Source: Escherichia phage vB_EcoM_MM02
Direction: 5' to 3' (one strand)
DNA: 64,000 bases
Sequence record: MK373784.1
Positions 20,107 through 29,674 of this stretch are shown in pieces (positions within the stretch are counted from its first letter, which is position 1; each line of letters starts with the position of its first letter). The position numbers were made by a program, and so were the translations under genes. The notes beneath the pieces are model-generated. The model had not been told where the DNA came from. It saw nothing but the letters and a program-made list of their open reading frames with translations, and did not search any database.

Positions 20107-20136
20107 ATAGTATCACACATCCATGTGTTTGTAAAC
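20107..20136 (-). promoter_or_regulatory. early promoter candidate (GTTTAC -35)
   Basis: Upstream of 19784-20077; -35 overlaps alt stop codon. Confidence 0.4.
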
Positions 20137-22223
20137 TATCCTTGGACAAATTTAAACGGAACTGATTCTAAATCCATTAAAGATGCTAACAATTTCAAAC
20201 CTTTAGGTGCACTAGTTTTTTCTACAAATGAGGCAAAAGATACCGGCTCATCCGATTCGATTTCACCCGTCATAGCAACCACCTCGCCTGTTTCCATGAG
20301 AACATCACCATCATAAATGACGGCTTCATCCAACTGGTCTGAGGACATGACTTCAGCTTGAATAAATTTAAGGTTGGATTCTAAACCTGCACCGGTGTCA
20401 GATGACGCATCTGTAATTTTATTTATCTGCAAGAGAATGCCTCTAGGCAAAATAATTTCTTGCTCATTAGGGTGATTACTCAACTGTCCTGGATAAATCA
20501 CGTTAACTTTATGGGCGCCATCGATAGCCCATCCAACGTTAACACGGATTTGTTCTGGTGCATGCATAGCTGTTCTTACTTGACTAGGAGAAATAGTAAC
20601 ACCTTCGTCATTATTGTCAATGTTAAGCTCTTTGCGAACTTCTTCAGGAGCAAGTCCAAGGGCAACGTTCTCTTTAAACCCACCGAAAATAATAGGAGCT
20701 AGTGAAGTGGAAACATAGTTTCTGAAGTAGAATACCTTATTTTTAACCATTGCTTCGTAAATAGGCATTCTGATAGACTGAGCTCTATATAACGTTAGTC
20801 CTTCAGGTAAACGGTCTCCATTTAAAAACGCCGAATCAAGACCATCAATAGCGCGTTTAACTTCATCTTCATCCGCAACATCGTAAAAATCTGGTTTATA
20901 ACGACCTAACAACATATTATTGATATCTGTATATGCAGAAGAGGCATATTCACGAATAGCTCGTTTTTCAGCAACAGAGTATTGTTTAGGGTCCCGATTC
21001 ATTGTTATATTAAAGGTGCCTCTAGCCGATTCTCGGGCATAAGTATACATCACATTAGACAAGAACGCTGATTTACTTTGTTTCCAAGTTCTTTCAGATA
21101 CTTCAGCTAAAACGTCGTCAGGCAGTTGGAAATTATCACGTCTAAAATCTTCAAACCATTCGTCTTTAATAGAGTCTGCAATTTCATTTGCAGTTTCAAC
21201 AAAAGCAGCTAATGCTTTAACAGATGTTGTTTTTTCAGTTTTAATTTTCTTAGCAAACTTTTCTAAAGTCGGCTTAATAACACTACCATAAGAAACTTCA
21301 TCGGCAAATTTAAAGGATTCATCAATACGATTATAAATCTTATTTTCGATATCAGCAACTAAAGTGCCTTTTGCTGTGGATGATGCTTGGGCTAGTACGA
21401 TTTCATATGCTTCAGGAAGTAATTCGGCTGTAGCTGGGCCGCTAACTTCTTTAGCAGAATTTTCGTATTTCTGGAATAACTCACCTTCTTGTCGGTCAGC
21501 TTCTAAAGATTGACTTGCTGCAATAGCACGACGAGAAATTTTGGTGCGAGCAATAACAGGCTTATCTTTACGTTTTTCTTCTACCGCGGCAATAGAACCA
21601 GCGATAGCAGTTTCTTTGGTAACCGTTTCGCCAGTCTTTTTACTCACATAAACTTCGCCAACATCAGAATCTACTTTCGTGTACAACTCTGTGTTAATGT
21701 TAGGGATGCCTTTAATATCTTCAATGTTGGCATTTTTACGAACCATCATCACATAGGTGTGTTTACCTGTGAATTGATACATTGCCGACAATACTTTAAA
21801 ACGACCACCGGTTTTAGTAGAAACTAAACGAGCAAGAAGAGTTTGAAGCTGTTGTCCACGTCCTTTCAATTTCTTGGTAGGGAATCGGAACAGAACTGCA
21901 TCCATACGAAGAGCTTTAACTTGTTCATATACTGTATTGAAAATGGTGTTGATTGCATCAATAGGAGCAGGACCAAGGCCATTTTTCAATTCAGCGAGAT
22001 TACCCTTTTCAGACAGACTCATAATAACAACATGAGCGTATTTGTCGCCAAGTTTAACTTGTTTTACAGCGTCGCCTTCGGAAAGGTAAGAGAATAAACG
22101 AACTACAATATTTGTATCGATATCACCAATTTTCCAGACTTGTGGAACTTTAGCTTTAGGGTTCAAATTGACGACAGGAAGACTGCCTTCAGATTCAAAC
22201 ACTTCATTTAATTGTTCAGACAT
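20136..22223 (-). CDS. alt: Alt ADP-ribosyltransferase (head-packaged)
   Basis: 695 aa; ART-type motifs (LYRAQS, YVSTS, QEIILPRG); position between 54 and DNA ligase. Confidence 0.8.
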   Translation of the reverse strand: MSEQLNEVFESEGSLPVVNLNPKAKVPQVWKIGDIDTNIVVRLFSYLSEGDAVKQVKLGDKYAHVVIMSLSEKGNLAELKNGLGPAPIDAINTIFNTVYEQVKALRMDAVLFRFPTKKLKGRGQQLQTLLARLVSTKTGGRFKVLSAMYQFTGKHTYVMMVRKNANIEDIKGIPNINTELYTKVDSDVGEVYVSKKTGETVTKETAIAGSIAAVEEKRKDKPVIARTKISRRAIAASQSLEADRQEGELFQKYENSAKEVSGPATAELLPEAYEIVLAQASSTAKGTLVADIENKIYNRIDESFKFADEVSYGSVIKPTLEKFAKKIKTEKTTSVKALAAFVETANEIADSIKDEWFEDFRRDNFQLPDDVLAEVSERTWKQSKSAFLSNVMYTYARESARGTFNITMNRDPKQYSVAEKRAIREYASSAYTDINNMLLGRYKPDFYDVADEDEVKRAIDGLDSAFLNGDRLPEGLTLYRAQSIRMPIYEAMVKNKVFYFRNYVSTSLAPIIFGGFKENVALGLAPEEVRKELNIDNNDEGVTISPSQVRTAMHAPEQIRVNVGWAIDGAHKVNVIYPGQLSNHPNEQEIILPRGILLQINKITDASSDTGAGLESNLKFIQAEVMSSDQLDEAVIYDGDVLMETGEVVAMTGEIESDEPVSFASFVEKTSAPKGLKLLASLMDLESVPFKFVQG

Positions 22224-22263
22224 AGTGTTTTCCTTTTAGTAATAATTTATATTTATGCCAAAA

Positions 22264-22279
22264 AGAGCCCGAAGGCTCT
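22264..22279 (-). terminator. terminator-like hairpin downstream of 22279-22467
   Basis: agagcc-cgaa-ggctct; minus strand followed by T-run. Confidence 0.5.
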
Positions 22280-22467
22280 TAATCCACAATCGGAAGCAAA
22301 GTACGATAAACTTCAAAATTATAGCCTTTTTCGTACTTATCGAAATTGTCCATAAAAATATGATAGGAATCGTTATTAGGAAAATCTAATATAATCTGAG
22401 AGCAAGAGGTGGAAACATCTCCACCATCCTTCTTAGCTACAATAACTGTTTCTAAATAAGCTTTCAT
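22279..22467 (-). CDS. small hypothetical protein, ~62 aa
   Basis: ORF track starts at GTG 22488; ATG at 22465-22467 overlaps ligase stop. Confidence 0.4.
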   Translation of the reverse strand: MKAYLETVIVAKKDGGDVSTSCSQIILDFPNNDSYHIFMDNFDKYEKGYNFEVYRTLLPIVD

Positions 22468-23960
22468 TATAAACCTGTCTGGGACCACGGTCCAAATACG
22501 TCTTCAAACGAATCCGCTTCTGTTTTATCAAAACGGAACCCTTTAATAATTGGGAGGAAAATACCTACAGTACCTTCACGGCCTTTAGAATGAACCCAAC
22601 CATTACATTCACAATCAGCGATACGTCCAATTAATTTACCTTCACGAGCTTCGGTCATTAATCGTTCACGGTCTAAATCATGACGCTCGTCTAAAGGAAT
22701 AAGAACCTTTACACCGTCAACTGTTTTATGAGTTGTATCTTTAAAACCTGAACCGCAATCGGTTGTAATACGACGACAACGTGATACGAGTTCGACACCA
22801 CCTAATTTGTTAGGGTCTTTAGAGTGTTCATAGTATCCTACAACTTCTAAAGCGATATCAATAACTTCTTTAAATTTAATTAGGTTCTTAGAACGTTTGT
22901 TTTCCCAATATGAATCACGGTTTTTAAGGATAATACCTTCAAGACCTTGGTCAACATATTTTTTATAAACCACTTTAGCTTCGTCAAGATTACGAACTAA
23001 CTGATTTTCAATTGGCTCAATTCGTTTAAAGCCTTCGGCCATATTTTCAAGAGCAGCAAAACGAACATCGTATTTCTGACCTTTAATTTTGCCATCAGAA
23101 TAGACTTCATCTAAAGGAACATAGTCCCAGGCTTGAAGAACCATACCTTCCGCTTCTTTAGGAGAAATAGTCCCTTGAAGAGATTTATTTGCTAAACCGT
23201 TTGAAGTGCTACGGTCCGCAACTTGTACTTCTTCGGATTCTTCATTATCACCAAATAAGAACGACAGATCATTTCCTGAGCTCACAGCCTTTTTAATATC
23301 AAATGAATGGTAAACTAATTCACCGTCGATTAAAACCCCATTAGGGTGTCTTTCACGAGCTTCTTTAGTCATTTCCATTAGTTCATCCGCTAATAGGGTA
23401 AGACCATGGTATTCATTACCAGCACGAGAAAAGAATTGAACACCATCATCGCGAACTTCAGCGAAACAACGAGCGCCGTCTGCTTTTAATTGGGCAAATG
23501 CAGGCCATTTAATATTTTTAGTAATCAATTTCTCATCATATGCAGATGCTAACATCTGTGGCTGCAATTGAATAAGTCCAGGCCACACCTTATTCGCGAT
23601 AGACACTGAAGCACCTACTTCAAGGTCTCGCATCATTACACGACGAAGGACTTCTACATCATCAGGTTTACCGTCAGCGATATAACCCATGAGCTCTTTA
23701 ATTGCAGCATTACCAGTGAGTTTACGAGTGGCTAATGTGAACTCAATAAAATCCAACATGTCATCTAATTCAAGAAGACCATATGCTTGAGACCTTTCAC
23801 CTGGTCCTGGCCATTTCTTAATATAATACTGGATACCGCGTGCATATGTTAAACGATACACACGTTCAAGTAATTTGTTGTCCTTATTTTTCTTAAGGAT
23901 TTCTTGTTTTGTTTTAGTAGAACCGATCGCAGCTATTTGGTTTAAAATATCTAAAATCAT
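22467..23960 (-). CDS. 30: ATP-dependent DNA ligase gp30
   Basis: 497 aa; N-terminus MILDILNQIAAIGSTK and C-terminal CECNGW...FEDVFG match T4 DNA ligase pattern; KADGAR adenylation motif. Confidence 0.9.
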   Translation of the reverse strand: MILDILNQIAAIGSTKTKQEILKKNKDNKLLERVYRLTYARGIQYYIKKWPGPGERSQAYGLLELDDMLDFIEFTLATRKLTGNAAIKELMGYIADGKPDDVEVLRRVMMRDLEVGASVSIANKVWPGLIQLQPQMLASAYDEKLITKNIKWPAFAQLKADGARCFAEVRDDGVQFFSRAGNEYHGLTLLADELMEMTKEARERHPNGVLIDGELVYHSFDIKKAVSSGNDLSFLFGDNEESEEVQVADRSTSNGLANKSLQGTISPKEAEGMVLQAWDYVPLDEVYSDGKIKGQKYDVRFAALENMAEGFKRIEPIENQLVRNLDEAKVVYKKYVDQGLEGIILKNRDSYWENKRSKNLIKFKEVIDIALEVVGYYEHSKDPNKLGGVELVSRCRRITTDCGSGFKDTTHKTVDGVKVLIPLDERHDLDRERLMTEAREGKLIGRIADCECNGWVHSKGREGTVGIFLPIIKGFRFDKTEADSFEDVFGPWSQTGL

Positions 23961-24226
23961 TTGATGTCCTCGATTTTGGTTACGGTTCTATTATAAGCCA
24001 CTTCATCTAGAAGCGATTTCAACGTTTTCTGATAAGTGGTAATCCATTTACCGAGCCCTTCAACATAGTATTCTGAAATGTAGATGAACCCTTGTTCAAC
24101 ACACTCTTTAAATATTTCTGCGTCTTTTACTGAACGAAATAAGGGCCAGTCTCGAAAGAACATGTTAACGTGACCGTAGTCACGCGTTGTGTTTTTGCCA
24201 TCTGTAATATCATGAACTACAAACAT
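23957..24226 (-). CDS. hypothetical protein, 89 aa (30.1 position)
   Basis: ATG ORF overlapping ligase start. Confidence 0.45.
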   Translation of the reverse strand: MFVVHDITDGKNTTRDYGHVNMFFRDWPLFRSVKDAEIFKECVEQGFIYISEYYVEGLGKWITTYQKTLKSLLDEVAYNRTVTKIEDIK

Positions 24227-24235
24227 AATTGACCC

Positions 24236-25060
24236 TTAACAATTTATAGACCAAGTCCATTTAGACGAATCTAAAGGAAAGTTTTGAATCGTCCACCACG
24301 GCTGCATATCAGTTGGTCCTGGGGTTCGCCAGGTATATGGAGTACGTGTTGTCGAGGGGCCACCAATTTGATTAGGCCATGCACCTGGACTTGTTGCACC
24401 AGATTCTTTAAGCAAATCCGCCAATCGTTTTAAAAGGTCTTCATGATCTGAATCTGAATTATTCTTAGGCAGAACCAAACGAGATTCAATATCATCCCAT
24501 GTGTGTACACGTTGTGCAGTGCGAGGAATATCATCACGTTCACCACGAGCCAACCAATAAATCGGTACATTAAGAATTTCTGCCGCATGGTCACAATGAT
24601 GAGCTAAATCGTCAACGTAACAAATTACGTTATATTTTGTTTTAGCTAGTTCGAATAATTGTTCCTTTGAAGAATCATGACCACACATCATTACTTCAGA
24701 GAAAGCGCCTGGGAACAAAGCATTCAAATTAAATTGTCTATTCAATCGAGCATCAATTGAATCACCTAGCGCCGTCACGGCTACAAAATTATAGTCTTCT
24801 TTTAGTTTATTGATAACTCGAAGAGCATCAGAATAAGGCGCTAAGTAACGAATAAAATCAGAGCTATTATATTTTTCTATTAATTGTTTACCAAGGTTAT
24901 CGTCGGTATTGAACAGTTTACCAGGAGAAATAAATTTTTCGTCCTGAATCATTTTTAAAATATGTTCTAATGGAAGGTTATATTTTTGGGCAAAATAAGG
25001 AAGTCCAGATTGCCAGCTTAAACATACACCATCAATATCAGTCAAAATAGTAGGCTTCAT
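24236..25060 (-). CDS. HAD-superfamily hydrolase-like protein (30.2 position)
   Basis: 274 aa; N-terminal DIDGV (HAD motif I); Trp/Pro-rich C-terminal tail. Confidence 0.5.
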   Translation of the reverse strand: MKPTILTDIDGVCLSWQSGLPYFAQKYNLPLEHILKMIQDEKFISPGKLFNTDDNLGKQLIEKYNSSDFIRYLAPYSDALRVINKLKEDYNFVAVTALGDSIDARLNRQFNLNALFPGAFSEVMMCGHDSSKEQLFELAKTKYNVICYVDDLAHHCDHAAEILNVPIYWLARGERDDIPRTAQRVHTWDDIESRLVLPKNNSDSDHEDLLKRLADLLKESGATSPGAWPNQIGGPSTTRTPYTWRTPGPTDMQPWWTIQNFPLDSSKWTWSINC

Positions 25061-25524
25061 AAAGAGTCTCTTAATAGGTTTAACACGTCAATAAATTCAT
25101 CTTCAGTTAGTATTGTATCATCTTTTGTTAGGTGGCTGGCCATGCTGTGCTTCAAAATTTTTCCTTTAGAGGCTTGTAAGGCATCGCGAAACCCCTTGTT
25201 TTGGATCGCGGCTTCAAAATATGCATTTGTGTATAATTCTTTCCACGCTTCAGAGTATCTTGAAAATGGAACTCCTAACCAGAAGAGAGTCCCACGGTCC
25301 TGAGCTCTTGCGTAAGACCTTCCAGCTTGCTGTGCAACCAATCCAGACAACCCAAATATACGTCTTTGTTGTTCAACATTTTTCACCTTACATCCTTGGA
25401 GAAATCCTTCAAGACCTCCGAATTGAATACCATCCATAACAAAAGGCCATTGAGCAAAGTTACTTAATGCACATGACGGCCACTTGAAATTACTTCTTAT
25501 TTCTAATTCAGACATCTTTAACAC
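25057..25524 (-). CDS. NADAR / YbiA-like (DUF1768) domain protein
   Basis: LSNFAQWP segment aligns with YbiA FSNFAAWP; ~150 aa; likely start at ATG 25515 rather than GTG 25524. Confidence 0.55.
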   Translation of the reverse strand: MLKMSELEIRSNFKWPSCALSNFAQWPFVMDGIQFGGLEGFLQGCKVKNVEQQRRIFGLSGLVAQQAGRSYARAQDRGTLFWLGVPFSRYSEAWKELYTNAYFEAAIQNKGFRDALQASKGKILKHSMASHLTKDDTILTEDEFIDVLNLLRDSL

Positions 25525-25726
25525 TTATAATTTCAACATCAGCCCAATGTCCGTATCCAGGTATACGGTCTTCGATAGATAAATTTCTGTCATTTTTAGG
25601 CATTTTAATTGACGTAACGTATGGTTCTAAACGGTTTTCCGCGTAATATGGAAAAACGTCGGTTACACGATAAGTAACTTCAATCATTTCCGTACCAAAC
25701 AATTTCTGGATTAATTTATTCAACAT
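25508..25726 (-). CDS. hypothetical protein, 72 aa
   Basis: ATG ORF in 30.x cluster. Confidence 0.4.
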   Translation of the reverse strand: MLNKLIQKLFGTEMIEVTYRVTDVFPYYAENRLEPYVTSIKMPKNDRNLSIEDRIPGYGHWADVEIISVKDV

Positions 25727-25913
25727 GTTTCAACCCTTTAATAGGAGATAACTCTTTACCCATACGTATGTCAGAAGTCCCATCAACCCATTGAACAGCA
25801 TACGCTTCATTGATAATTCCAGCGGCAGTTTTAAATTCTTTGAGAACTTTAAAAATCATCCCAGGGATTCCAACACCTTTTAATTGGACTGTTTGTGCTA
25901 TTAAAAATTTCAT
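25716..25913 (-). CDS. hypothetical protein, 65 aa
   Basis: ATG ORF in 30.x cluster. Confidence 0.4.
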   Translation of the reverse strand: MKFLIAQTVQLKGVGIPGMIFKVLKEFKTAAGIINEAYAVQWVDGTSDIRMGKELSPIKGLKHVE

Positions 25914-25967
25914 ATTTTTCCACTTACTAAAGAAATCATTATACTCTAATCCGTCCTTGGATGTACA

Positions 25968-26582
25968 CTACTTAATGAAATTAATTTCTACCGGATGAAC
26001 AACAGGTTGAGCAGTGATATATTGAGTAATTGCTTTCATGACTAGAGCTTCAGAACCAGGATTTTTCTCAACGAATTCACGTGCTAGGTTATGAGCTTCG
26101 AGTTCACTCAATAAACCGGAACGCTGGCATCCACGGTCTTGAGTACCCTGTTCAGATAAAAGGACTACTACATATTTTTCATCGTCGTATGGCTTAGCCA
26201 GTTGAGCAAATGTTCCTTTACTTCCAAAAGGAGAGTTATGTCGCCACATCACGCCGTGAGGAGTTTCAACCTTCGTATATTCGTGCGGTCCATTTTTCTT
26301 AGTTTCTTGATGTGGAACTTCATAGACTTTAGGGTTAGGACATTCAATAAAATGCTCATCTAAATCGGTCGAGAATATTAAAGTAAAACAATTACTGAAT
26401 TTACCAACACCGGCCTGATAAATTTTACCTTCAGAAGTTCTAATTTCACAAACCGAGCCGGCATCAGTAACTTCTAAAACTTCAAAAGGCTCGATAAGGT
26501 CATATGAGAACATGTTTTTAAGGCGTGGAGTAATATCCCCATTTTTAAAATTCATTTTATAAAAAGTATTAACTTTAAACAT
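25968..26582 (-). CDS. hypothetical protein, ~204 aa
   Basis: ORF track starts at TTG 26612 inside a hairpin; ATG 26580-26582 with SD GAGGAAA. Confidence 0.5.
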   Translation of the reverse strand: MFKVNTFYKMNFKNGDITPRLKNMFSYDLIEPFEVLEVTDAGSVCEIRTSEGKIYQAGVGKFSNCFTLIFSTDLDEHFIECPNPKVYEVPHQETKKNGPHEYTKVETPHGVMWRHNSPFGSKGTFAQLAKPYDDEKYVVVLLSEQGTQDRGCQRSGLLSELEAHNLAREFVEKNPGSEALVMKAITQYITAQPVVHPVEINFIK

Positions 26583-26594
26583 AATTTCCTCAAT

Positions 26595-26610
26595 GGGAGC
26601 CGAAGCTCCC
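26595..26610 (-). promoter_or_regulatory. intercistronic GC hairpin without U-tract, just 5' of SD of 25968-26582
   Basis: gggagc-cgaa-gctccc. Confidence 0.4.
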
Positions 26611-26617
26611 AATTAAT

Positions 26618-26983
26618 TTAGATATCAAATTCGTTAAGAACTACATCAAAGATTGCTTCGAGATGTTCAGGTTTAGCTCGGTTACTCAGGATATGACGAA
26701 TCCAAGATTTAACCAGAAGTTTACGATTAACACCATTCCAGCAAGGATGAGTACCTAAATCACGCTGACGGAAATCATCATCTAATGCAATTTTAAAATT
26801 TGAACCTTCCATCGTGATTGAAACCGTGATACCATTTTCAAATCGCATATAAACGTAATTAGGAGTCATGCACTGTTCGATTTCACAAACTGTACCGTTT
26901 TCGTGTTTCCATAAGCAAATAACTTCAGAAGAACCAGCAATACCGTTAGAAACATATTTACGTTCGAAGTTGGTGTAGTTCAT
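26618..26983 (-). CDS. hypothetical protein, 121 aa
   Basis: ATG ORF; early promoter with 8-bp inverted repeat upstream. Confidence 0.5.
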   Translation of the reverse strand: MNYTNFERKYVSNGIAGSSEVICLWKHENGTVCEIEQCMTPNYVYMRFENGITVSITMEGSNFKIALDDDFRQRDLGTHPCWNGVNRKLLVKSWIRHILSNRAKPEHLEAIFDVVLNEFDI

Positions 26984-27013
26984 TTTATTCTCCAGATGTT
27001 TAAGTTGTTTGTT

Positions 27014-27053
27014 GGTACAGGTCTATAATAACATAACCTGTACCAAAGTAAAC
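27014..27053 (-). promoter_or_regulatory. early promoter with embedded 8-bp inverted repeat
   Basis: Minus strand GTTTAC-N17-TATTAT; arms GGTACAGG (27014-27021) and CCTGTACC (27037-27044) flank the -10. Confidence 0.5.
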
Positions 27054-27057
27054 TGTT

Positions 27058-27426
27058 TTATGCAACTTTAATCCAATTGTCTAAATTTAAAACACCTTTG
27101 GCTTTCATTTTTTCTATCAGGTTATCTGCTGTAATGCGTCCATTTTGATACCATGTAACATCTTCAGAGTAACCAGTTTCTTCGTCAACATATGTTTCTG
27201 AACGAATTTTACCGGTAATAATAGTTTTTAATTCGTATGTGTCACCTGTGAAAAAGTTTGCTAACACAATTTTCCAAGAGAAATCATCAGAAGGACCTTC
27301 AGGGGTCATACAACCTACGAACTCAAATTGCTCTTTGTATAACATCCACTGGAATTCTTTAATTTCGATAGCTTTATAACCATCGTGGTCTTTACATTTG
27401 ATGTATGAGTTCAGATTGATTTTCAT
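27058..27426 (-). CDS. hypothetical protein, 122 aa
   Basis: ATG ORF; early promoter upstream; shares CMTP motif with 26618-26983 product (weak, possible paralog). Confidence 0.5.
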   Translation of the reverse strand: MKINLNSYIKCKDHDGYKAIEIKEFQWMLYKEQFEFVGCMTPEGPSDDFSWKIVLANFFTGDTYELKTIITGKIRSETYVDEETGYSEDVTWYQNGRITADNLIEKMKAKGVLNLDNWIKVA

Positions 27427-27468
27427 TTTGTTCTCCAGGTTGTTTTATTGATTAGATGGTACAAGTCT

Positions 27469-27497
27469 ATAGTAACACATCCTACAGGAGAGTAAAC
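27469..27497 (-). promoter_or_regulatory. early promoter (GTTTAC-N17-TACTAT)
   Basis: Upstream of 27058-27426. Confidence 0.45.
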
Positions 27498-27533
27498 ATC
27501 TTTTTAAACTTTTTCTGCCCTAAACGCACAAAA

Positions 27534-27551
27534 GGGAGACCGAAGTCTCCC
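27534..27551 (-). terminator. terminator after small basic protein gene
   Basis: gggagac-cgaa-gtctccc; minus strand followed by tttt. Confidence 0.6.
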
Positions 27552-27556
27552 TAAAA

Positions 27557-27736
27557 TTATGCAACAACCTTTCCAAAACGAGAAGCATCATCTCGAAGAA
27601 CTGCACGTGCTCTGCGCATGATCTTCTCAACTGTTTGATTAATACGAGAGTTCGACCCACGCTTGTATCCAGCGCGTTTAGAGGTACCATCAACTTTCTT
27701 TTCAACTGCTTTCTTTGCTTTAGCTTGTTTTGCCAT
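27557..27736 (-). CDS. small basic hypothetical protein, 59 aa (30.9 position)
   Basis: Hand-translated MAKQAKAKKAVEKK...; ATG 27734-27736; terminator hairpin directly downstream. Confidence 0.45.
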   Translation of the reverse strand: MAKQAKAKKAVEKKVDGTSKRAGYKRGSNSRINQTVEKIMRRARAVLRDDASRFGKVVA

Positions 27737-28031
27737 TATAAATTCTCTTTAAATGAAAATGCAGGACTTATTGACATTGCCTGCGCAAGCCCTCAAGGGG
27801 AACATAGGTTTTGGATATTTAACGACAGGATAACCATAAACCCGTCATCATACCAACCACGACTTAGACAGATAACCTTTTTCTGACGCGTGATAGTACA
27901 AAATACATTCAAGAGGTACACCGTAAAACTGCCGGGGCCTTAAAACTATAATGATTCGCAAATCATTAATCAGACAGTTCGACGGCTCCTCGATTTTCTA
28001 GCCGCACTTAAGGTAGCGAATCACCTAAAAC

Positions 28032-28280
28032 TTATTTAAGGGTAATAACAAAATGACGTACTGCTTTACGAGCTGCAGAAGCCAAAGGCTTAGCATATTT
28101 CAGTTCATCTTTTGCTTCCAGTTCAGAGGCCAAAGCTGCCTGTACCGGGTTCAGATGTTTGAAATAATGCAGGATTTCCAGTGCTTCGGCTTCAACATCA
28201 ATCGACGCGCCGTAGTTTTCGTGACCGTTATTCCATGCGTTTCGTTGCAGTTCAAGAGCGTGTTGTAATTGTTTAATCAT
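28032..28280 (-). CDS. rIII: rIII lysis-inhibition accessory protein
   Basis: 82 aa, same length as T4 rIII; position adjacent to gene 31. Confidence 0.7.
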   Translation of the reverse strand: MIKQLQHALELQRNAWNNGHENYGASIDVEAEALEILHYFKHLNPVQAALASELEAKDELKYAKPLASAARKAVRHFVITLK

Positions 28281-28404
28281 TTTAAATTCTCAATTCGAGA
28301 TAATATTTAGTAGCCACGTTCGTCTGAATTTCACCTTCTTTCGACAAGTCTCTCAGTTGTAGGCTACCGCTTAGAAGAGTGTTCTCTTCATATAGTTATT
28401 TATA

Positions 28405-28737
28405 TCACTTATAAAGACACGGAATAGCTTTATAGTGGCATGTTACGAATTTCTGTTTAATTTCTTTAGGTTGTTTAAGTCCCAAAGCCACAAATGGATG
28501 TGGAACATTTCGAATTTGTCCAACTGGTAGTGGAGTCAAATCACCGACTTCAACAAAACCTTCAGGAACATCAGGACCTACAGAATGAACTACACATAGT
28601 TCAGGAACTTCACCTTGAACACGTTTACCAATCACAAGTCCTGATTCGGTAACTTCTTCATCACCTGCTTGAGCGGGTTCAGAAACCAGAATGACATATT
28701 CACCAACAGCACGAATTGGGAGTTGTACTTCAGACAT
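28405..28737 (-). CDS. 31: gp31 co-chaperonin (GroES-like)
   Basis: 110 aa; MotA-box middle promoter upstream. Confidence 0.8.
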
Positions 28738-28767
28738 CTTATTTCCTTGTTGTTTGACGATAGATTA

Positions 28768-28792
28768 ATAATACCATACTATTCGTAAAGCA
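28768..28792 (-). promoter_or_regulatory. MotA-dependent middle promoter candidate upstream of gene 31
   Basis: Minus strand reads TGCTTTA (MotA box), 12-bp spacer, TATTAT. Confidence 0.5.
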
Positions 28793-28794
28793 TA

Positions 28795-29091
28795 TTACAT
28801 AAGAAGCAAACGTTCTACCGGAGTACCATCAACCGAAATTACTTTATCAAGGCGGAAAGAACGCCACTGACCTAACTTGGTATCGAATGCTCGAACTGAT
28901 TCACGAGGTTCAGAACGAACTTCTGTTGCCGGATTGTTATTTTCATATTTGACTTCAAGTTCATCGCGCGAAGCAAACATAGTGCGTACCTCACCGTTAG
29001 CCTTTTCAAATACAACACAATGAACGCCTACAGACAGAATAGTTTTAATACGTTCACGAAGAACCATAGTTTCTTGTTCAGTTAAAATCAT
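28795..29091 (-). CDS. hypothetical protein, ~98 aa (31.1 position)
   Basis: ORF track starts at GTG 29103; in-frame ATG at 29089-29091. Confidence 0.45.
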   Translation of the reverse strand: MILTEQETMVLRERIKTILSVGVHCVVFEKANGEVRTMFASRDELEVKYENNNPATEVRSEPRESVRAFDTKLGQWRSFRLDKVISVDGTPVERLLLM

Positions 29092-29092
29092 A

Positions 29093-29674
29093 TTATTCAC
29101 CACAAAAGTTTCGGATTTGTTCCCAATTCAGAGAACGAAGATTATTACGAGAGTACTGAATTACTTCAATACCGGCTTGTTTTAGAATGTCTGCCCAATT
29201 TTCAGGAGATCTGTCATATAATTCTGCGTATACAACCTTTTTAATACCTGACTGTGTAATAGCTTTAGTGCAATCAGGACACGGAGAAAGCGTAGTATAT
29301 AACGTAGCACCTTCAATAGAATTACCTTTACGAGCTGCAAACAAAATTGCATTCAGTTCCGCATGGATTTCGTTATTAGCAGACCATGCACTATGAGCGG
29401 CCCGATGTTCTTTAGCCAAAACAAAATTATCTGCCCGTCCAAATGCTGTAGTGCCTTCTTTATGCCCAGCAACGATGACCGGGCTTGGTTTATTCTTCAA
29501 CCAACCGTTTTCGGATGCATGTTCGCAACAGTTTGTACCACCTGAAGGAGAGCCATTATAACCTGTAGAAATAATGCGTCCATCTTTTTCAATGACGGCG
29601 CCAACTTTCCATGAACAACATTTTGATTCTTGAGAAATCAGATATGCAATCTGAAGGTATGTGCTAGCTTTCAT
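29093..29674 (-). CDS. cd: dCMP deaminase
   Basis: 193 aa; zinc-binding HAELNAI and SPCPDC motifs; N-terminus matches T4 Cd pattern. Confidence 0.9.
   Translation of the reverse strand: MKASTYLQIAYLISQESKCCSWKVGAVIEKDGRIISTGYNGSPSGGTNCCEHASENGWLKNKPSPVIVAGHKEGTTAFGRADNFVLAKEHRAAHSAWSANNEIHAELNAILFAARKGNSIEGATLYTTLSPCPDCTKAITQSGIKKVVYAELYDRSPENWADILKQAGIEVIQYSRNNLRSLNWEQIRNFCGE

Follow-up and report, generated by a model that had tools for sequence, protein, structure and literature searches.

Gene 30.3 of phage T4 encodes a protein, gp30.3 (NP_049816), that was renamed AdfN, for anti-DarT factor NADAR, in 2025 (Johannesman et al., Nat Commun; PMC11825919). AdfN is a guanine-specific DNA ADP-ribosylglycohydrolase, both necessary and sufficient for T-even phages to resist the DarTG1 defence (PMC11825919). 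Chimeras between RB69 and T2 or T4 placed the DarTG1 resistance of T2/T4 in the 3' part of gene 30.3; deletion of adfN leaves T4 and T2 unable to form plaques on DarTG1 cells, and ectopic adfN fully rescues RB69, whose own allele is inactive, a frameshift having removed the last 15 residues, that is, the C-terminal helix (PMC11825919). E36A, K43A and truncation each impair the function of the T4 protein, and DarT1-modified DNA loses its ADP-ribose to purified AdfN, not to the E36A mutant (PMC11825919). In vitro, T4 gp30.3 hydrolyses guanosine-ADP-ribose (guanosine-ADPr), not thymidine-ADPr (PMC11125620), and in a transposon-sequencing preprint (bioRxiv 2025) insertions in 30.3/adfN were lost specifically on a DarTG1 host. 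Here, I describe a stretch of 64,000 nucleotides (the window, meaning the whole stretch that was analysed) from Escherichia phage vB_EcoM_MM02 (MK373784.1), a phage of the Tequatrovirus type, which carries what sequence comparison identifies as an intact orthologue of T4 gene 30.3 (adfN).

The window protein aligns with T4 gp30.3 at 95% identity, without gaps, over all 152 residues. Both genes sit between 30.4 and 30.2, with the same flanks in the two phages (30.2, 30.1 and 30 on one side, 30.4 and 30.5 on the other) and the same start/stop overlap arrangement, and the window allele keeps the features shown experimentally to matter: the residues E36, K43 and H123 are present, and the C-terminal helix (residues 138-152) is intact and matches that of T4 except for D139A. 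The two proteins differ by seven conservative or surface-type substitutions (window to T4: K11R, V60A, E89P, I120V, M125I, H128G and D139A), none of them at an invariant position. By nucleotide, adfN is 88.5% identical to the T4 gene, with 38 synonymous and 7 non-synonymous codon changes, a ratio that marks the reading frame as one under strong purifying selection. Divergence from T4 across 20136..27426 is strongly mosaic when protein identities are compared: gp30.3 (95%) and gp30.7 (92%) stand at the upper end, followed by 30.2 (69%), the ligase (64%) and 30.5 (64%), and the lower end is made up of 30.1 (58%), 30.4 (53%), Alt (about 36-42%) and 30.8 (37%). Recent recombination was considered as the origin of so T4-like a gp30.3 and rejected, for the nucleotide identity is only 88.5% and the synonymous changes number 38; purifying selection fits.

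The open reading frame (ORF) that the initial annotation had placed at 25057-25524 is real, lies on the minus strand and is single and unbroken, coding for 155 aa when counted from the GTG; its start, however, is likely the ATG at 25515 rather than the GTG at 25524. That ATG, three codons inside the GTG-start ORF, yields a 152-aa protein with the N-terminus MSELEIRSNFKWPSCALSNFAQWPFVMDG (MSELEIR...). It is favoured because the resulting gene has the same length as the annotated T4 gene 30.3 (459 nt), because the published catalytic numbering E36/K43 is reproduced and fits only the ATG start, and because the 8-nt overlap (ATGTCTGA) with the 30.4 stop is the same as in T4. The three extra codons from the GTG up to the ATG coincide with the end of 30.4 read in another frame, and probably do not belong to the translated gp30.3. 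T4 also annotates 30.3', an ORF of 75 aa in an alternate frame overlapping 30.3; its window equivalent (25152..25379, minus strand, inside adfN) is not kept as such, the frame being split by stops into pieces of 34 aa and 24 aa, and since it is not conserved between close relatives 30.3' is probably not a real gene.

The initial annotation had called the product NADAR/YbiA-like, and the call is supported by family-level profile matches, model fold and catalytic residues. The window protein matches Pfam PF08010 (Phage_30_3) with E=2e-69 and 232 bits (cut-off 36) over 138/138 profile positions; in PHROGs it falls into phrog_652 (function unknown), and in NCBIfam it found no match. The LSNFAQWP segment on which the call was based is present at residues 17-24 (ATG numbering) and aligns with FSNFAAWP of Escherichia coli YbiA (PDB 2b3w). 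YbiA is as well the sole, weak match (E=0.6) of the window protein in a phmmer search of the PDB, and the one match (E=0.008) of a 60-sequence family profile against solved structures. The 60 homologues, full-length sequences gathered from a large protein database, were used for the profile, for conservation and for an AlphaFold2 model, which reached a predicted local distance difference test (pLDDT) of 93.3 and a predicted template-modelling score (pTM) of 0.87. The significant structural neighbours of this model are three NADAR structures only, and the same three are ranked at the top by Foldseek, which answers the check on the fold that the initial annotation had proposed.

As to the catalytic residues, E36, G37, F38, Q40 and K43 are invariant in 60/60 homologues, and codons 36-43 align to EHYFQAQK of YbiA; the E-x2-[FY]-Q-x2-K helix, with its Glu and Lys, is present. 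In the NADAR superfamily, the conserved Glu and Lys of this helix contact ADP-ribose, and the spacing of 7 residues between E36 and K43 is that of E88/K95 in the E. coli C7 NADAR. H123, likewise invariant in 60/60 homologues, closes model strand 120-122, the last beta-strand; this place is taken by Glu in the YbiA family and by Asp in the DarG1/BC4488 family, and a His there is described in the literature as the signature of phage NADARs of the gp30.3 type. The window protein is a member of the NADAR superfamily and belongs to its phage gp30.3 clade (PF08010); a homologue is present in 1510 phage records.

By analogy with T4, the gene is very probably a functional adfN that counters the DarT1 guanine modification of phage DNA. 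A small free-standing enzyme of NADAR fold would be made early in infection, while host DarT1 would ADP-ribosylate guanines in the replicating phage DNA; AdfN would then hydrolyse the N-glycosidic ribose-guanine bond with Glu36, Lys43 and His123, and with the release of ADP-ribose a replicable template would be restored, allowing the phage to escape the DarTG1 abortive defence. Orthology, synteny, fold, catalytic residues, intact C-terminus and purifying selection were computed here; enzymatic activity and the DarTG1 phenotype are those of the 95%-identical T4 protein, and the window allele would be expected to behave in the same way. Reversal of DarT-type guanine ADP-ribosylation, which the initial annotation had put forward as a candidate function, has been demonstrated for that T4 protein (PMC11825919), and the associated idea of a counter-defence enzyme, supported here, had already been published for the T4 orthologue.

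Some points weigh against this reading. In uninfected E. coli, T4 AdfN fails to neutralise DarT1, and its rescue of non-T-even phages (T5, Bas25) is only weak, so that a simple hydrolase model is incomplete; the authors of the T4 AdfN study infer that an additional T-even factor is needed for full activity. The window allele differs from that of T4 by the seven substitutions listed above, and the experiments concern the T4 and T2 alleles. Moreover, the window protein has no match at E<=1 to PF08719 (DUF1768), the Pfam NADAR family to which the initial annotation had assigned it. On this last point, 23/60 members of the PF08010 family do match PF08719 (best E=1.5e-7), and the link between PF08010 and NADAR appears to hold at the family level. 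Direct sequence routes being weak alone, the NADAR assignment rests on the fold search together with this family-level Pfam count.

A possible source of the additional T-even factor would be gene 30.2, whose ATG overlaps the adfN stop (ATGA). Its product might potentiate AdfN or process the AdfN product, in which case 30.3-30.2(-30) would form a DNA de-ADP-ribosylation/repair module; I consider this improbable. Besides the start/stop overlap, the idea draws on retained proximity, for in Straboviridae-type loci 30.2 either adjoins gp30.3 and the ligase or follows them downstream within about 1.2 kb, and on the N-terminal ~195 aa of gp30.2, which show a HAD-like pattern (D8-x-D10-G11, T96, K132, D151) invariant across 9 orthologues, its DxDG and Thr/Lys/Asp being typical of HAD phosphohydrolases. 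Pro, Trp and Tyr abound in the C-terminal ~80 aa, whose length and sequence vary greatly from phage to phage. Yet the match to Pfam HAD_2 (E=0.014) stays below the cut-off and counts against the idea, as does the fact that ordinary T-even synteny would produce such linkage, and 30.2 is not mentioned in the 2025 transposon preprint. One 30.2 orthologue reaches NT5C at E=0.1, and a 9-sequence 30.2 profile found nothing significant in the PDB; gp30.2 is a putative, as yet unproven, HAD-like phosphohydrolase. Linkage was assessed by tblastn of the window neighbours against 80 viral loci: that of 30.2/ligase/alt to gp30.3 is missing from most of the loci whose identity is about 40%. A general module of these genes with gp30.3 was rejected, the linkage being confined to T-even and close Straboviridae loci.

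Synteny bears as well on a proposal of the initial annotation that found no support, the trimming of phage-made ADP-ribosylation. In the fuller form considered here, the enzyme would reverse or trim the ADP-ribosylation put by the phage's own Alt, ModA and ModB on host proteins or RNA, thereby tuning host takeover, which I regard as very unlikely. The Alt ADP-ribosyltransferase expected nearby is indeed found, about 3 kb from 30.3 and in the same minus-strand block, and T4-like phage NADARs were noted among early genes together with ADP-ribosyltransferases in 2022 (PMC9503650). In most distant phages, however, neither alt nor the ligase nor 30.2 lies within 6 kb of the gp30.3 homologue, so that linkage to alt is a matter of ordinary T-even synteny rather than of a conserved module. 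Alt-type enzymes modify arginine, which also speaks against trimming. Furthermore, all NADARs tested, T4 gp30.3 included, cleave guanosine-ADPr, not thymidine-ADPr (PMC11125620), and the NADAR literature cited reports no NADAR assay on a protein substrate. Finally, the phenotype of an adfN deletion is specific to DarTG1 hosts, the gene being non-essential on E. coli K-12.

An equally low probability attaches to a metabolic N-glycosidase of the YbiA type, acting not on DNA but on small molecules such as intermediates of the riboflavin pathway or soluble immune signals derived from ADPr. Among solved structures, YbiA matches best in sequence and ranks first or second in structure, and a preference of phage NADARs for low-molecular-weight ADPr derivatives was put forward in a survey of 2022 (PMC9503650); nonetheless, the last-strand Glu that defines the YbiA family is replaced by the invariant His, the published phylogeny puts the T4-type clade nearest to the DarG1 antitoxins, and the direct demonstration that the T4 protein de-ADP-ribosylates DNA argues against small molecules as its main role, though a side activity on them may exist beside that on DNA. 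That the window gene should be a decayed or inactive copy kept by synteny alone, akin to natural inactive alleles such as the RB69 frameshift and several database entries that are truncated or fused, has a negligible probability in view of its full-length frame, intact C-terminal helix, complete set of catalytic residues and 38:7 synonymous to non-synonymous ratio.

The features of the locus are collected in the table.

Table. Features of the adfN (gene 30.3) locus and of its surroundings, in window coordinates
Feature	Coordinates	Strand	Remarks
alt	20136..22223	-	Pfam ADPrib_exo_Tox, E=6e-28
alt.1	22279..22488	-	Pfam PF24647 'Phage blade protein', E=9e-29
DNA ligase, gene 30	22467..23960	-	ORF of 497 aa
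30.1	23957..24226	-	DUF3045
30.2	24236..25060	-	ORF; phrog_420, E=3e-78; directly downstream of adfN
adfN / gene 30.3, coding sequence	25057..25515	-	152 aa; TGA stop at 25057-25059; predicted NADAR-fold DNA ADP-ribosylglycohydrolase
Codons 138-152, C-terminal alpha-helix	25060..25104	-	alignment, model helix 138-151 and RB69 truncation data
Codon 123 (His)	25147..25149	-	last beta-strand; replaces catalytic Glu (YbiA family) or Asp (DarG1/BC4488 family)
Codons 36-43 (E-G-F-L-Q-G-C-K), with catalytic Glu36 and Lys43	25387..25410	-	invariance, YbiA alignment and mutants
Extra in-frame codons GTG-TTA-AAG	25516..25524	-	last sense codons of 30.4 in another frame
30.4	25508..25726	-	ORF; phrog_2042, E=2e-35; directly upstream of adfN; stop overlaps adfN start by 8 nt (ATGTCTGA)
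30.5	25716..25913	-	same position as on the T4 map
214-aa ORF	25968..26612	-	phrog_17531 (function unknown), E=3e-146
30.7 and 30.8	beyond the 214-aa ORF, block surveyed to 27426	-	T4 map

The block lies entirely on the minus strand and is transcribed toward lower coordinates, in the order 30.4, 30.3, 30.2, 30.1 and 30 (ligase). The initial annotation had put 30.3 three genes downstream of the ligase, which is correct in map coordinates; because transcription runs toward lower coordinates, it is three genes upstream in the sense of transcription. The order alt, alt.1, 30, 30.1, 30.2, 30.3, 30.4, 30.5 agrees with the T4 map, and the 2.7 kb surrounding 30.3 are 99% identical to Escherichia phages vB_EcoM_KAW3E185, WFL6982 and F31, among others. 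No DarT is found next to 30.3, the neighbours being 30.4 and 30.2 and the nearest ADP-ribosyltransferase Alt. A scan for promoters and terminators over 22000..29500 returned sites no more numerous than in shuffled controls. The 214-aa ORF occupies the place of T4 gene 30.6 (95 aa); it has no tblastn match to the T4 locus and no Pfam match, and looks like a cassette exchanged within this phage lineage. At the other end of the block, the ligase ORF of the window has 497 aa versus 487 aa in T4 (coding sequence of 1464 nt), and the listed GTG-start ORF of alt.1, whose PF24647 is a recent Pfam family, shares 22 nt with the ligase gene at the 3' end (stop) of the latter.

Fold, chemistry and anti-DarTG1 role of this protein were already known (published 2023-2025), and there is little new biology here. 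The main value lies in the annotation of adfN in phage records: the label 'hypothetical protein' is carried by all 15 near-identical phage records listed and by most of 40 records sampled from the 1510 that bear a homologue. An intact allele predicts plating of the phage on DarTG1-carrying E. coli, and the phage group includes isolates described for therapy. The case also illustrates that a call made on short motifs from the sequence alone can be correct, as it was for the NADAR assignment.

Among other NADARs, E. coli YbiA (PDB 2b3w), a PF08719 member, is only about 18-22% identical to the window protein; it has a catalytic Glu, in place of His, on the last strand and a housekeeping role in riboflavin metabolism, and is encoded in a LexA-regulated operon. 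The DarG1 antitoxin NADARs (BC4488 family; the Geobacter lovleyi NADAR, PDB 8bat, and the E. coli C7 NADAR) carry an N-terminal extension that the 152-aa window protein does not have, and an Asp in place of its last-strand His. Since an adjacent DarT and the extension are both absent, the window protein does not strictly count as a DarG1 antitoxin but as an orphan antitoxin-like enzyme, and its T4 counterpart, unlike the DarG1 proteins, cannot serve as an antitoxin in uninfected cells. AdfN(Bas32) and AdfN(Bas60), which come from T5-like and Vequintavirinae phages, do not depend on T-even infection for their function, in contrast to the T4-type protein with its need for a T-even factor; they belong to other NADAR clades and were acquired independently, and yet they share with the T4-type enzyme both the anti-DarTG1 role and the guanine specificity.
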